Positions 27,955 through 61,243 of a DNA stretch of 64,000 nucleotides are shown one piece after another. Both the position numbers and the translations under genes were made by a program. The notes beneath the pieces were generated by a model that made no database searches, was not told where the DNA came from, and saw only the letters and a program-made list of their open reading frames with translations. The DNA comes from an uncultured bacterium (lineage in GTDB: Bacteria > Patescibacteriota > Minisyncoccia > Phycocordibacterales > UBA9973), in NCBI GenBank assembly GCA_903892035.1, contig CAITGV010000001.1, forward strand, positions 419,310 through 483,309, given 5' to 3'. The first letter of the stretch is position 1. Each line of letters opens with the position of its first letter.

Positions 27955-27981
27955 CCCACAGGCCTTGCCTGTGGTTTTGTG
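27955..27981 (+). terminator. Rho-independent terminator after gyrB
   Basis: Stem CCACAGG/CCTGTGG with loop CCTTG, followed by TTTTGTG. Confidence 0.6.
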
Positions 27982-28000
27982 TATGTAATATAATATCATT

Positions 28001-28678
28001 ATGAGTATTCGAAATACACCTTTTGTTTCAGGTGAGTATTATCATATATATAATCGTGGTAATGGAAAACACGAAATATTTTTAGATGATGAAGATTATG
28101 ATCGATTTATAAAATTACTTTATGTTTGTAACTCTGAAAAGAAATTTGTGTTTAGAGATTCAATAACAGATATTGGTATTGATGCTTTTGATTTTGAAAG
28201 GGAAGAACCTCTTGTTTCGATTATATCTTGGGTACTCATGCCAAATCATTTCCATATATTTCTTATTTCCCATAGGTCCGACCTATGGGAAGAAGATTAT
28301 AATCCGATTACAGAATTTATGAGAAAGTTATCAACTGCGTATGCTATGTATTTTAATAAAAAATATGGGAGGTCGGGGTCTTTGTTTGAAGGGAAATTTA
28401 AATCGAAACATGTTGAACAGGATAGTTATTTTAATTATCTTTTTGCTTACATACATCTGAATCCAATAAAATTGATTCAGTCAGACTGGAAAGAAAAGGG
28501 TATTAAAAATCCACAACAGGCGAGAGAATATTTATCAGAATATAAATATTCTAGTTTTCAAGATTATTTTGGTAAAGAAAGAAAAGAAGGAAAAATAATT
28601 GACATGAAAAATATTACAAAAGAAATCCAAAATGCTCACATAAAAGAACTTTTTGAGTGGATTGCTATTTCCCCATAG
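28001..28678 (+). CDS. IS200/IS605-like HUH (Y1) transposase / REP-associated tyrosine transposase (RAYT)-like
   Basis: YHIYNRGNGKHEIF N-terminal motif, HUH motif MPNHFHIFL, and catalytic Tyr region YAMYFNKKYG...FAYIHLNPIK. A REP palindrome lies inside the gene and another at its 3' end. Confidence 0.75.
   Translation: MSIRNTPFVSGEYYHIYNRGNGKHEIFLDDEDYDRFIKLLYVCNSEKKFVFRDSITDIGIDAFDFEREEPLVSIISWVLMPNHFHIFLISHRSDLWEEDYNPITEFMRKLSTAYAMYFNKKYGRSGSLFEGKFKSKHVEQDSYFNYLFAYIHLNPIKLIQSDWKEKGIKNPQQAREYLSEYKYSSFQDYFGKERKEGKIIDMKNITKEIQNAHIKELFEWIAISP
28266..28289. repeat. REP-like palindrome TCCCATAGGTCCGACCTATGGGAA inside the transposase ORF (in-frame, 24 bp)
   Basis: Perfect 9-bp arms CCCATAGGT/ACCTATGGG. 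Encodes SHRSDLWE immediately after the HUH motif. Confidence 0.7.
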
Positions 28679-28690
28679 GTCCGACCTATG
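28666..28690. repeat. REP-like palindrome CCCCATAGGTCCGACCTATGGGAA at the 3' end of the transposase gene
   Basis: Second copy of the same palindrome, overlapping the stop codon. Lies between the transposase and convergent thrS. Confidence 0.7.
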
Positions 28691-28695
28691 GGAAT

Positions 28696-30761: not shown

Positions 30762-30835
30762 GCGATCGTAGCTCAACTGGTTAGAGCACTCGCCTGTCAC
30801 GCGAGAGGTTGCCGGTTCAAGTCCGGTCGGTCGCG
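30762..30835 (+). tRNA. tRNA-Asp (anticodon GTC)
   Basis: Acceptor GCGATCG/CGGTCGC, D-arm TAGCTCAACTGGTTAGAGC, anticodon stem-loop CTCGC-CTGTCAC-GCGAG, T-arm GCCGG-TTCAAGT-CCGGT. Confidence 0.8.
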
Positions 30836-30887
30836 CATAAAGAAAAAGCCACAGTAATGTGGCTTTTTCTTTATGCGCGACCGACTA
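30824..30887. repeat. About 60-bp near-perfect palindrome spanning the tRNA-Asp 3' end and an intrinsic-terminator hairpin
   Basis: GTCGGTCGCGCATAAAGAAAAAGCCACAG-TAA-TGTGGCTTTTTCTTTATGCGCGACCGAC. The central AAAAAGCCACA/TGTGGCTTTTT is a classic terminator. Confidence 0.6.
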
Positions 30888-36561: not shown

Positions 36562-37845
36562 ATGTATAGTAAAAAAATTATTGACGATATAAATAAAGAA
36601 CTTGAAAACTTGAAGGTGCAGGGGAAGTTTAAGGTGGAAAGGGAATTGGAAGGACCGCAGGGGCCGGAGGTTTTGATTGGGGGGAAGAAGGTTTTAATGT
36701 TCGGTTCAAATAATTATTTGGGACTTTCAAATCATCCTGCACTCGTTGAAGCTAGTAATGAATATCAAAAAAAATACGGCTACGGACTTTCGTCTGTACG
36801 TTTTATTTCTGGTACGCAAAATATTCACAGAGAATTGGAAAAAAAGTTGGCAGAATTTCTAGGCACAGAAGATGCGATTTTGTATTCGACAAATTTTATG
36901 TCGAACCTTGGATTTTTTGCGAGCATTGTAAATGAGCCATTTCAGAAATTGGTAGTCGGAGTACCAATTGGTACTCCGACTACCAATTATAAAGATGCAA
37001 TATATAGTGATGCACTGAACCACGCGAGTATTATCGATGCATTTAAACTTTGTAATCGCGAGCGTCTAGAAAAAAGAATTTATCCGCACAAAGATTTGAC
37101 GACGTTGCGCCAAATGCTTGAGGAAGACACTTCGACTTCGCTCAGTGCAGGCAATTCTAAAGATATTCGAAATAAAATAATAGTGACTGACGGAGTATTT
37201 TCAATGGAAGGCGATACTGCAGACCTCGCAGAGCTTGTAAAAATTGCAGAAGAATTTGGCGCAATGCTTTTTGTCGACGATGCACATGCGGTAGGAGTAT
37301 TGGGTGAAAATGGAACAGGTACGGCTGAACATTGTGGAGTTTTTGGGAAAGTAGATGTAATTTCTGGAACATTTGGAAAAGCACTTGGTGGTGCGGTCGG
37401 CGGGTATATTGCAGGTAAAAAAGAAATTGTAGAATTTTTAAGACAAAAATCTCGCACATATATGTTTTCAAATTCTGTGCCACCTGCTGTCATAGGTGCC
37501 ACACTTCGCGCACTCGAACTTTTGAAAGAAGATAATAATTTACTTATTGCAGTAAAAGATAATGCAAAATATTTTCGAGATGGTTTGGAAAAACTTGGTT
37601 TTAAAACTCTTCCAGGGAGCCATCCTATAGTTCCACTAATGATTGGTGATGCAAAGCTGACGCAAGAGATGAGTAAAAAACTTTTGGAAAATGGAATTTA
37701 CGTCGTGGGACTTTGGTTTCCTGTTGTTCCGGAAGGTCATGCACGTTTGCGTTTTCAAATTTCCGCCGCGCATACAAAAGCTCACATCGACCAAGCTCTC
37801 ACCGTCCTCGAAAAAATTGGAAAAGAAATGGGCGTCATAAATTAA
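36562..37845 (+). CDS. kbl: Glycine C-acetyltransferase (2-amino-3-ketobutyrate CoA ligase)
   Basis: PLP-dependent alpha-oxoamine synthase fold with the lysine motif SGTFGKALGG. Adjacent to tdh. Confidence 0.8.
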   Translation: MYSKKIIDDINKELENLKVQGKFKVERELEGPQGPEVLIGGKKVLMFGSNNYLGLSNHPALVEASNEYQKKYGYGLSSVRFISGTQNIHRELEKKLAEFLGTEDAILYSTNFMSNLGFFASIVNEPFQKLVVGVPIGTPTTNYKDAIYSDALNHASIIDAFKLCNRERLEKRIYPHKDLTTLRQMLEEDTSTSLSAGNSKDIRNKIIVTDGVFSMEGDTADLAELVKIAEEFGAMLFVDDAHAVGVLGENGTGTAEHCGVFGKVDVISGTFGKALGGAVGGYIAGKKEIVEFLRQKSRTYMFSNSVPPAVIGATLRALELLKEDNNLLIAVKDNAKYFRDGLEKLGFKTLPGSHPIVPLMIGDAKLTQEMSKKLLENGIYVVGLWFPVVPEGHARLRFQISAAHTKAHIDQALTVLEKIGKEMGVIN

Positions 37846-58453: not shown

Positions 58454-58528
58454 GCCATCATAGCTTAGTGGCAAAGCACTCCCTTGGTAAGGGAGAGACC
58501 GTGAGTCCGATTCTCACTGATGGCTCCA
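58454..58528 (+). tRNA. tRNA-Thr (anticodon GGT)
   Basis: Acceptor GCCATCA/TGATGGC, discriminator T, CCA encoded. Anticodon loop CTTGGTAA; T-arm GAGTCCGATTCTC. Confidence 0.85.
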
Positions 58529-60035
58529 GAATCAAACAGGACGGGTTTTGAGAAAAATTTTGGCGGGCAGAGCGAAGCTCTGCCCAAGGATTTAAAGGGT
58601 TTCCGAATGCTTCTCGTTTTTGGAGGGTGAGGCTCGAGCCGAAGATTTTTTGGAGGGAGATTTTTTTGGAGGGGAGGTCGTTCGTATTGGCGATTTCATC
58701 CAGTATTAAAGCGTCTTTTATCCATTCTCGCGTCGGTTCGATCCATGCGGAGGGGGTTCGCAAAAGTCGCTGTATTTTTTCCTCAACAGACTTTTTATCG
58801 GACATGAAAGAACGACGCCTTTCGAGGTAGTCGTCTCGTTCGATATCTTGAGAAACATAGACATCTGTAAGTCTGGTGAGGTTTTTTGAAATGTTTTGTT
58901 CTTCTTCTCGCAATTCCAACACAGCTTCTGATGCAGTATGTTTATTTTTCTGTTCTTCAACATCCAACATTTCAAAAAGTTTTGTCGCCCATGCTTTAGG
59001 CATCATATATTCAACAAGTATTGCTGAAAGCTGGCGATCCAGTTCTTCGCCTCGCACGCAAGGCTCAAAACATTTTTGCGTTTTGGATTTCTTTGAGCAG
59101 TGATAATAGGTGTATAAATGTTTTGTGCCATTCTTTTGTCGTTTGATTTTTAGCTCTCCCGTTATTCCCATGCCACAATTCCCGCACGACATAAGCCCGC
59201 AAAATGGTCTCGGGTCAGTTTTCTTGTCGGGCGTTCGACCGCGACCTCGCAATACAGCGTTTGCTTTATCAAAAAGTTCTTTGGAAATAATCGGTTCATG
59301 TTTACCCTCGTATATTTCCCCTGCGTGGCGAAAATGTCCGTAGTAGATAGGGTTGCAAATAATATGCGATATTCTCGAAACATGGACACGATTATTATTT
59401 TTTGATTTTATTTCCGAGTTTTCCAAAATCACAGCGAGGTCTTCAAGTCGCACATTTCCTGTGGCGTAAAGTTCAAATATTTTCTTCACGAGTTTCGCAT
59501 TTTTTTGATGAAGTGCAATTTTCTTGATTGCGGGATTGTTGATATAGCCGAACGGAGCAAGACTGGGGAAGTCGCCATTTCGTGCCTTTTGTCGCAGTCC
59601 GCGAGCGGTATTTTCGCTGAGTTGTCGGACATATTCATTAGCCATTCCTAGCTCCACAGACATCATCAACACATTGTCATTTGGAAAATGACTTTGTCCG
59701 TGAGTTTGGATATGTTGGATTATGTTTTGCTGGAGCATCCATTGGATTTTTCCGCTATCTACTGGATTACGAGATAAGCGATCAATTTTCCAGCAAACAA
59801 TTCCTTGCGCTTCTTCATTCTGAACACGCGAAAGCATTTCATTAAAAATTGGTCTGCCTGGAATTTTCGCAGAACGCTTTTCTATAAACTCATCGGCGAT
59901 TGATAGATTTTCACGCTTGGCAAGCTCGCGCAATTCGGTGAGCTGTGCCTCGATAGATAGGATTTGTTTATCCTCCACATCTGTTGATTTGCGAGCGTAT
60001 AAAAAGTATTTAAGCATGGTTGTATTATACCACAA
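58458..60035 (-). CDS. Large serine recombinase (resolvase/invertase N-domain, recombinase domain, zinc ribbon, coiled coil)
   Basis: N-terminal YARKSTDVEDKQILSIEAQ (catalytic Ser), zinc-ribbon CGLMSCGNCG...HCSKKSKTQKC and a coiled-coil. The last ~75 codons read through the left inverted repeat and the tRNA-Thr antisense, so the true C-terminus is uncertain. Confidence 0.85.
   Translation of the reverse strand: MWYNTTMLKYFLYARKSTDVEDKQILSIEAQLTELRELAKRENLSIADEFIEKRSAKIPGRPIFNEMLSRVQNEEAQGIVCWKIDRLSRNPVDSGKIQWMLQQNIIQHIQTHGQSHFPNDNVLMMSVELGMANEYVRQLSENTARGLRQKARNGDFPSLAPFGYINNPAIKKIALHQKNAKLVKKIFELYATGNVRLEDLAVILENSEIKSKNNNRVHVSRISHIICNPIYYGHFRHAGEIYEGKHEPIISKELFDKANAVLRGRGRTPDKKTDPRPFCGLMSCGNCGMGITGELKIKRQKNGTKHLYTYYHCSKKSKTQKCFEPCVRGEELDRQLSAILVEYMMPKAWATKLFEMLDVEEQKNKHTASEAVLELREEEQNISKNLTRLTDVYVSQDIERDDYLERRRSFMSDKKSVEEKIQRLLRTPSAWIEPTREWIKDALILDEIANTNDLPSKKISLQKIFGSSLTLQKREAFGNPLNPWAELRSARQNFSQNPSCLILEPSVRIGLTVSPLPRECFATKL
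58522..58692. repeat. Left ~170-bp inverted repeat of the recombinase element (overlaps the tRNA-Thr 3' end)
   Basis: Near-identical to the reverse complement of 61060..61243. Contains internal palindrome GGGCAGAGC-GAA-GCTCTGCCC and three TTTTTGGAGGG sub-repeats. Inner end: TTGGAGGGGAGGTCGT. Confidence 0.8.
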
Positions 60036-60284: not shown

Positions 60285-60980
60285 ATGACAAGAAAAAACG
60301 ACATAGAAGCTCTTTTAGAAAGAGTAGGAAAAGCAGAACCAAAGATTATTGAAGAATATAACAAATCACTTCACGATAAAACGATTGGAAATAATTTGAA
60401 AATTGATATTAAAGATTATTTTAGTCATCTTCGCTCTGTGTTGGATTATTTAGCTCATGATATTGTGGAAAAAAATTGCCCAAATGTTGACCCGAAAGAT
60501 AGGTTATATTTTCCTATTGGTTCAGACCAAAGTTCGTTTGAAGGAATAATGAAAAAATCATATCCTGATCTTAGTACAAATTCTATAAAAGTTTATAGTA
60601 TCCTAGAAAATATTCAACCATATAAGAAATCAGAAAATTTGTGGCTCAGTTCTTTCAATAAAATTAATAACGAAAATAAACACGAGCAGTTAACTCCTCA
60701 AAAAAGAACAGAAACAAAGAGGATAAATGTACAAGCTAATAACGGAGCTTCTGTTTCTTGGAATCCTTCTTCCGTTCGATTTGGTTCGGGTGTTTCAATT
60801 GCTGGAGTACCTGTAAATCCTAGTACGCAAATGCCAGTACCTTCAAATATTCAAACAGTAACGATTGAAACTTGGGTAGATTTTCAGTTTGAGGGTACGG
60901 GAGTATCAGCAATTTGGTTAGTAAAAGAAAGTCTCAAAAATGTAAAGGAAATTTTTAATGATTTGAAAAATTATATTTAA
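60285..60980 (+). CDS. Hypothetical protein (231 aa), cargo of the recombinase element
   Basis: ATG overlaps the XRE gene stop (ATAAAATATG). No recognisable motifs. The C-terminal half is predicted beta-rich. Confidence 0.5.
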   Translation: MTRKNDIEALLERVGKAEPKIIEEYNKSLHDKTIGNNLKIDIKDYFSHLRSVLDYLAHDIVEKNCPNVDPKDRLYFPIGSDQSSFEGIMKKSYPDLSTNSIKVYSILENIQPYKKSENLWLSSFNKINNENKHEQLTPQKRTETKRINVQANNGASVSWNPSSVRFGSGVSIAGVPVNPSTQMPVPSNIQTVTIETWVDFQFEGTGVSAIWLVKESLKNVKEIFNDLKNYI

Positions 60981-61059: not shown

Positions 61060-61243
61060 GCACGACCTCCCCTCCAAAAAAATCTTCCCTCCAAAAATCT
61101 TGGGCTTTTGAATTTTTGAACCTCACCCTCCAAAAACGAGAAGCATTCGGAAACCCTTTAAATCCTTGGGCAGAGCTTCGCTCTGCCCGCCAAAATTTTT
61201 CTCAAAACCCGCCCGTTTTAATTCTGGAGTCCCTCTTAAACAA
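61060..61243. repeat. Right ~180-bp inverted repeat of the recombinase element
   Basis: Reverse complement matches 58522..58692 (GGGCAGAGCGAAGCTCTGCCC, GAGAAAAATTTTGGCGGG, the TTTTTGGAGGG sub-repeats, and a copy of the last ~10 nt of tRNA-Thr). Confidence 0.8.

Follow-up and report, generated by a model that had tools for sequence, protein, structure and literature searches.

A RAYT-type transposase gene of Patescibacteria with a REP-like hairpin in frame and in both flanks

The systems closest to the one described here are the REP-associated tyrosine transposases (RAYTs, also termed TnpAREP) and the repetitive extragenic palindromes (REPs) that accompany their genes. In Escherichia coli, the RayT/TnpAREP gene and its hairpins constitute a REPtron, in which a single-copy, vertically inherited gene is bordered by cognate hairpins (4ER8; Messing et al. 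2012; Ton-Hoang et al. 2012; Corneloup et al. 2021, PMC8266576). In vitro, this enzyme acts on single-stranded REP DNA, which it both cleaves and rejoins (PMC8266576). REPs that lie within genes were catalogued, many of them in replication and repair genes (Di Nocera et al. 2013, PMC3733652). Furthermore, REPs are inserted in frame inside the transposase genes of TnpAREP subclass 2.4 (Bertels group 4), where they fall in a peripheral loop of the protein (Quentin, Siguier, Chandler & Fichant 2018, PMC6006769). Here we describe a related arrangement in a 64-kb stretch of DNA from an uncultured, ultra-small Patescibacterium (contig CAITGV010000001.1; the whole stretch is hereafter called the window). 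A domesticated-looking gene located between gyrB and thrS, whose product appears to be a RAYT-type protein, carries a 21-nt perfect palindrome both within its reading frame and at its stop codon.

The gene is an open reading frame (ORF) for a 225-amino-acid protein and is the only member of its family in the window. A dedicated script that scans for hairpins of 9–11 bp revealed three at this locus (Table 1). Two of these are exact copies of the palindrome CCCATAGGTCCGACCTATGGG, as a preliminary description of this DNA had recognized. Each copy is composed of a perfect 9-bp stem with a 3-nt loop, and the two form direct repeats that are 403 bp apart. The first copy lies inside the gene, where its core is read in the frame H-R-S-D-L-W. 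When the flanking nucleotides are included, the perfect stem of this internal copy extends to 11 bp, and a folding energy of −16.6 kcal/mol is predicted for the RNA. The GC content of the palindrome is 62%, compared with 29% for the gene. The second copy overlaps the end of the gene, again as described previously. Its reading frame contains a TAG triplet (positions 28676–28678), and therefore the hairpin itself supplies the stop codon. A third hairpin, whose diverged sequence is CCACAGGCNNNGCCTGTGG, is enclosed by the gyrB stop codon and the ATG of the transposase gene, 26–45 nt upstream of the latter. This 5′ hairpin had been overlooked.

The same architecture is found throughout a large family of genes. 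Approximately 8000 homologues were identified, nearly all of them in Patescibacteria, and 76 genes recovered from 80 loci of the GTDB were compared with each other. Family-wide, one hairpin is located about 45 nt upstream of the ATG (−30 to −60 in orthologues), and a second coincides with the stop codon or follows it closely. In the clade whose members also carry the insert, an in-gene copy is added to these, such that each gene usually has three cognate copies. The copies at any one locus match each other. Specifically, the 7-nt core of the internal hairpin was found again in the flank of its own gene at 31 of 33 loci, compared with 5.8% in cross-locus comparisons. The earlier proposal that the palindrome is the cognate REP-like hairpin of the gene is supported.

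A total of 21 distinct cores are represented across the loci, including CATAGGT, CCTAGGC, CATAAGT, CACCAGT, CGGAAGC, CGGTAAC, CAAAAGA and CCTATCC. The encoded peptide varies with the core (SHRSDLW, SPRQGLG, NAEARLP, PAGNPVTG and others), and base pairing is retained. Among orthologues, amino acids change in compensatory pairs, for example from H..W to P..G. Because the peptide changes while pairing is kept, amino acid conservation is ruled out as the cause of the palindrome. The selected feature, as judged by sequence comparison, is the DNA and not the peptide. The preliminary description had noted that its interpretation would fail if orthologues were to hold the same residues without palindromic DNA. 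The reverse was observed, since the orthologues keep the palindrome and change the residues.

The genomic position of the gene is conserved as well. In at least eight GTDB genomes, including those of the window and of L001, L002, L004, L006, L007, L009 and L010, and also in metagenome contigs, the gene resides between gyrB and thrS. Across these syntenic loci, GyrB proteins are 73–78% identical and ThrS proteins 50–60% identical, and third-codon identity in the syntenic group is 0.54, compared with 0.34 expected from composition. The occupation of a fixed site across genomes that are so divergent argues for vertical inheritance, as is the case for RAYTs and unlike an active insertion sequence (IS). 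In nearly all syntenic members the stems are perfect and the three hairpin positions change together. Given the divergence at silent sites, a palindrome under no constraint should have decayed, as happened in L001, L003 and five further loci, and so the copies must be maintained, either by selection or by ongoing copy correction. Because copies within a locus are alike even at the fixed gyrB-thrS site, they must also be actively kept alike. Several genomes carry two paralogues of the gene, and each paralogue has its own hairpin set.

The features of the encoded protein support its assignment as a Y1/HUH transposase of the RAYT/TnpAREP type. Both hallmarks of the superfamily are present, the HUH motif and a single catalytic tyrosine on a helix that follows. 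The residues H83-F-H85 and Y150 are invariant among 23 orthologues, as is the sequence YIHLNP at residues 150–155. The catalytic tyrosine region is thus intact, which the preliminary description had left to be established. The Pfam profile PF01797 (Y1_Tnp) matches residues 46–152 by a small margin (24.3 bits versus a cut-off of 23; E = 3.7e-5). A model generated by AlphaFold2 on alignment A1 (predicted local distance difference test score, pLDDT, 73; predicted template modelling score, pTM, 0.79) places a strand at residues 83–90, a loop at 91–101 and a helix at 102–121. The residues contributed by the insert fall in this predicted loop between the HUH strand and the helix. When the model was compared with known structures by using Foldseek, the top match was 4er8_A, a structure of the E. 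coli RAYT in complex with a REP hairpin (E = 4.6e-6), and ISDra2, IS608 and Sulfolobus TnpA were also matched (probability 0.75–1.0). A sequence-profile search with alignment A1 revealed no relatives in the PDB at E ≤ 0.01, and therefore the link to 4ER8 is provided by the fold comparison.

The in-gene hairpin is not a recent acquisition. The segment is present in 22 of 22 close orthologues that were aligned (60–74% identity), which rules out a recent or private insertion. The stretch that extends from LMPNHFH to the following helix is a constant 28 amino acids in relatives without an internal hairpin, versus 35 amino acids here. The insert therefore comprises 7 amino acids, or exactly 21 nt. 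The preliminary description had correctly placed an insertion in frame after the HUH motif, and the alignment confirms that it is real relative to deeper relatives and common to all close orthologues. The size it had given (24 bp and 8 amino acids), however, is one codon greater than that measured against insert-less relatives. When the insert was masked and a neighbour-joining tree was constructed, the 40 insert-bearing genes formed one clade. The simplest reading of this tree is therefore that a 21-nt unit was inserted in frame a single time, probably at the base of a large clade. The internal hairpin is intact in 33 of these 40 genes, and it has decayed in the other 7 (L001, L003 and five more).

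A second in-gene location was identified in L043, L054 and L078, where a cognate hairpin is present in frame near residue 55. The protein encoded at L078 is 7 amino acids longer at this place, which corresponds to a low-confidence loop (residues 50–62) of the predicted structure. These three genes are scattered on the tree, which argues that the cognate hairpin has entered the enzyme's own gene more than once. The copies near residue 55 thus look like independent self-insertions at a second permissive site.

The 21-nt unit is also found apart from transposase genes. Metagenomes were scanned for CCCATAGGTNNNACCTATGGG; 90 stretches of DNA matched, and the 80 loci listed among the matches were examined. 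About 25 matches are in RAYT-like genes, at positions approximately 16 residues before the start, near residue 90 and near residue 225. Six loci (L089, L100, L104, L124, L130 and L152), which belong to a subfamily with 48–52% identity, carry the palindrome near residue 55. Most of the other matches are solitary and usually intergenic, and they are bracketed by complementary A/T nucleotides in the order TTT...AAA, opposite to that of a terminator. In addition, in-frame copies reside in ligA (NAD-dependent DNA ligase), mnmA, miaA, rnhB (RNase HII), tsaD and a xerC/D-like gene of related metagenome contigs (L116, L112, L142, L131, L102, L113, L118 and L092), with the identities of the host genes confirmed by Pfam. 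In these proteins the peptide added is SHRSDLWE or PIGxTYG. Approximately four to five extra cognate copies are present in about 200 kb of sequence flanking the orthologues.

The unit is 7 codons long and, whichever its orientation, two of the three frames are free of stop codons, and so it is able to land in genes without breaking them. Because it occurs both as solitary copies between genes and in frame within unrelated genes, the unit would seem to behave as a small mobile REP-like element. The preliminary description had further noted that its proposal would fail if the palindrome occurred nowhere else in the genome; within the window it is confined to this gene, but it recurs among the metagenome loci described above. 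It had also raised the possibility of self-targeting, with which both the copies near residue 55 in other subfamilies and the presence of the unit in unrelated housekeeping genes are in keeping.

Some additional characteristics of these dispersed copies were observed. The mnmA (L112) and tsaD (L092) loci carry further hairpin-derived segments. Solitary copies (L105, L113, L137, L144, L132 and others) are flanked by locus-specific complementary bases, for example ggcagttt-CCC...GGG-aaactgcc, and therefore each solitary copy is a longer perfect palindrome. These longer palindromes may represent either variable outer arms, growth by templated correction, or a preference for palindromic targets.

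Rickettsia palindromic elements (RPE) are reportedly inserted in frame in protein-coding genes. Like intragenic REPs, they resemble the present unit in that housekeeping genes, often those with roles in DNA or RNA metabolism, tolerate palindromes in frame. RPE are about 100–150 nt in length, whereas the unit described here is 21 nt and is also located inside the gene of its presumed mobilizing enzyme.

The occurrence of REPs within genes is an established phenomenon, because both the in-frame REPs of subclass 2.4 and other intragenic REPs have already been published. The preliminary description consequently overstated the case when it called an in-gene palindrome unusual (PMC6006769). The novelty lies in the lineage, the phylum, the minimal hairpin and the tracking of one ancient copy. 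The searchable literature yielded nothing relevant that links RAYTs or REPs with Patescibacteria, or the candidate phyla radiation (CPR). Subclass 2.4 genes share with the present family the cognate palindromes that flank the gene and the in-gene copies. However, their products have the motifs WQ and YIxNNP and a median length of 194 amino acids, whereas the window protein has NHFH, FE, YIHLNP, an invariant S184-S185 (SS tail) and a length of 225 amino acids. The REPs of subclass 2.4 are long or 'double-foot' elements, in contrast to the minimal 21-nt perfect palindromes without a GT[AG]G foot that are found here. The hosts of subclass 2.4 are Cyanobacteria or Bacteroidetes rather than Patescibacteria. 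Also unlike subclass 2.4, the present family exhibits one ancient insertion that is conserved and co-varies across a large clade.

At the level of motifs, the protein is probably nearest to subclass 2.1 (Bertels group 1, TIRYT; Di Nocera et al. 2013, PMC3733652; PMC6006769), and not to subclass 2.4 or to IS200 proper. Shared features are NH[YF]H, Y[IV]HLNP, the SS tail and a similar length (about 238 amino acids in subclass 2.1). Members of subclass 2.1 have been reported without REP-like hairpins, whereas the family described here has short perfect hairpins on both sides of the gene and within it. TIRYTs are flanked by terminal inverted repeats with GGGGWSAS, a motif that was not seen by eye at the window locus, although no formal search for it was made. 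The E. coli REPtron is the best structural match and has the same inheritance and layout as noted above. The E. coli RAYT and the window protein, however, share only 14% sequence identity, and E. coli REPs are imperfect, 29–37 nt long, GTAG-footed and highly abundant, with no copy inside the gene.

The architecture of this locus, coupled with the known activities of TnpAREP, leads us to favour a joint reading that we hold to be somewhat more probable than all others together. In this reading, the gene is a REPtron-like RAYT gene whose cognate hairpin is a small mobile element, the copies are homogenized by the enzyme, and the insert is tolerated. The gene would encode a class-2 Y1/HUH single-strand DNA endonuclease/transposase that is inherited vertically between gyrB and thrS in this Paceibacteria-type Patescibacterium. 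Its three cognate hairpin copies would be positioned about 45 nt upstream of the ATG, in the surface loop that follows the HUH strand, and at the stop codon. The protein would recognize its own hairpins on single-stranded DNA, and hairpin-specific cleavage and rejoining would replace one cognate copy with another by copy replacement or gene conversion. This mechanism is proposed because TnpAREP cleaves and rejoins single-stranded REP DNA (PMC8266576). Homogenization would extend to the copy in the enzyme's own gene, and enzyme and hairpin would co-evolve. The seven extra residues would simply be tolerated, and the internal copy would not be a required regulatory device.

Several observations weigh against this interpretation. 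The 5′ copy in the window is not homogenized with the internal and 3′ copies. No further copies of CCCATAGGTCCGACCTATGGG were detected in the 64-kb window when up to three mismatches were allowed (0 in shuffles), and the dispersal observed is that in related contigs. Neither a GTAG nor a GTGG foot is present, and the hairpins are instead flanked by TTT/TTC...AAA, whereas canonical REPs have GT[AG]G. The sole NCBIfam match of the protein, NF047646 (REP_Tyr_transpos), reaches 43.4 bits against an equivalog cut-off of 80; on this comparison of sequences the protein is a distant relative, not the equivalog. Hairpin binding and cleavage by the window protein are activities that we infer. Finally, the perfect palindrome in 33 of 40 lineages could be explained equally well by direct selection on the internal copy.

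The last of these points is the basis of the strongest alternative, which we consider possible but on balance unlikely. In this alternative, which takes up the attenuation or regulation suggested in the preliminary description, selection would act on the internal hairpin directly, as a cis-acting control element. Binding or cutting by the enzyme would take place at the copy in its own gene, on DNA made single-stranded by replication or transcription, or in its mRNA; otherwise, the stable, GC-rich stem would retard translation or cause the RNA to be processed. Both routes would result in negative feedback on a potentially harmful nuclease. Perfect palindromes have persisted in those 33 lineages despite near-saturated silent-site divergence, and at a few loci they are perfect without matching flanks: no cognate hairpin was detected in either flank of L021, and only near-variants were detected at L014 and L040, yet the internal copies of all three are perfect. 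Cognate hairpins have also entered RAYT genes repeatedly and independently, both near residue 55 in this family and in subclass 2.4. Moreover, the internal stem is stable despite residing in a gene of low GC content, and both the internal and 3′ copies would be part of the mRNA if the TATAAT-proximal site is where transcription begins. In contrast, the seven lineages that lost the internal copy have kept the gene and its flanking hairpins, and many family members function without an internal copy. Equally perfect copies are also present in unrelated housekeeping genes, where autoregulation cannot be the reason for their preservation.

A more elaborate form of selection on the internal copy can be envisioned, although we regard it as doubtful. 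The in-gene hairpin could be a selected self-recognition device, bound or nicked by the enzyme in its own coding sequence or mRNA such that production of the enzyme is limited, and at the same time a protected 'master copy' whose loss would destroy the enzyme and which thereby locks hairpin and enzyme into co-inheritance. If true, this would account for the persistence of a perfect, cognate palindrome at a single codon position while the stem changed 21 times across a deep Patescibacterial clade.

It is far less probable that the hairpin-gene-hairpin unit is an autonomous IS of the IS200/IS605 type, wherein the hairpins are its ends and the internal hairpin serves as an alternative end that gives truncated derivatives. 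The gene is indeed bordered by hairpins as in IS200/IS605, whose TnpA proteins (those of IS608 and ISDra2) likewise have the Y1 HUH fold and recognize subterminal hairpins on single-stranded DNA. The direct repeats formed by the internal and 3′ copies, 403 bp apart, and the two paralogues in several genomes could also be accommodated. However, these paralogues are divergent and have different hairpins, and thus are not recent copies. There is one gene copy in the window, no tnpB accompanies it, and its gyrB-thrS position is conserved across genomes with ThrS proteins only 50–60% identical. The readable loops (aag/ctt) reveal that the flanking hairpins are mutually inverted, as in REPtrons. Lastly, the tyrosine motif is of the class 2 form Y---NP, and not the Y---Q of IS200 transposases. 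The designation RAYT-like used in the preliminary description is upheld by the Y1_Tnp profile and by the 4ER8 match.

The notion that the palindromes are ordinary terminators, or chance sequences driven by amino acid content and unrelated to the enzyme, has almost nothing to recommend it: the 5′ hairpin, with its T run after the gyrB stop codon, is the sole terminator-like site flagged in the region, but a T tail is absent from both the internal and the 3′ copy, TTT typically precedes and AAA typically follows the solitary copies, 0 copies are expected by chance, and covariation refutes the idea where the internal and 3′ copies are concerned, with pairing preserved as the peptide changes and each paralogue having its own cognate set.

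The region upstream of the gene includes a promoter-like site (Table 1). Its −35 element falls within the 5′ hairpin, in the loop and the right arm, and the end of its −10 element is separated from the ATG by 6 nt. In most of 11 related loci, a TATAAT-like box is found again 6–9 nt before the ATG. The close proximity of this box to the start codon suggests that the transposase gene may be expressed from a leaderless or near-leaderless mRNA. A comparison with known RNA families yielded only a sub-threshold match to RT-6 (18 bits versus a gathering score of 46.7).

Two observations regarding hairpin types were also made. Some loci are mixed. In L009 and L018, the 5′ and internal hairpins are alike and the 3′ hairpin differs, and in the window the internal and 3′ hairpins are alike and the 5′ hairpin differs. 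Such mixtures recall the several REP subfamilies that are present at one E. coli REPtron. Furthermore, where the loop reveals orientation (aag/ctt), the 5′ copy nearly always reads 'ctt' on the coding strand.

Table 1. Positions of the transposase gene, its motifs and the associated hairpins in the window
Feature	Position	Strand	Evidence
Gene for 225-amino-acid class-2 Y1/HUH (RAYT/TnpAREP-type) protein	28001..28678	+	ORF, profiles, motifs, fold
HUH motif codons CAT TTC CAT (H83-F84-H85), beta strand residues 83-90	28247..28255	+	
Catalytic tyrosine motif Y150-I-H-L-N-P, intact; Y---NP class 2 signature (PMC6006769, Table 1)	28448..28465	+	
5′ hairpin CCACAGGC-ctt-GCCTGTGG, then TTTT; diverged member of the hairpin family	27956..27974	+	
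Internal in-frame hairpin TTCCCATAGGT-ccg-ACCTATGGGAA, core 28269-28289, encodes S90-H-R-S-D-L-W-E97	28267..28291	+	
3′ hairpin CCCATAGGT-ccg-ACCTATGGG, same sequence and orientation as the internal core	28672..28692	+	
Promoter-like site: -35 TTGCCT, 18-nt spacer, -10 TATAAT	27965..27994	+	10/12 matches; scan alone not significant

Other inverted repeats are present elsewhere in the window. Two hairpins with 9-bp stems (GGGCAGAGC gaa/ttc GCTCTGCCC) reside at 58565–58585 and 61168–61188, and with their flanks they constitute an inverted repeat of about 33 nt whose arms are 2.6 kb apart. These repeats bracket a gene for a large serine recombinase (58458–60035, minus strand) and a 231-amino-acid ORF (60285–60980), and one of the repeats is located inside the 3′ end of the serine recombinase ORF. 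This arrangement could represent an integrated or invertible element. Approximately 270 nt upstream of the position at which thrS begins (30555, minus strand), there is a further perfect inverted repeat (30826–30885), composed of 28-nt arms separated by a 4-nt loop. In addition, positions 36947–36988 constitute a perfect palindrome of 42 nt, each arm of which has 19 nt (AATTGGTAGTCGGAGTACC aatt GGTACTCCGACTACCAATT).

These findings extend RAYT/REP systems to the Patescibacteria (CPR) and to a 2.1-like subclass that had been reported without hairpins. The stop-free 21-nt unit shows how a minimal palindromic repeat can colonize the coding sequences of very small genomes that are densely packed with genes. 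The peptides that it adds to DNA ligase, tRNA-modification enzymes and other proteins (for example, SHRSDLWE or PIGxTYG) matter for the annotation and alignment of CPR proteins. The three co-varying copies at a fixed syntenic locus represent a natural data set on the co-evolution of a REP family with its enzyme.

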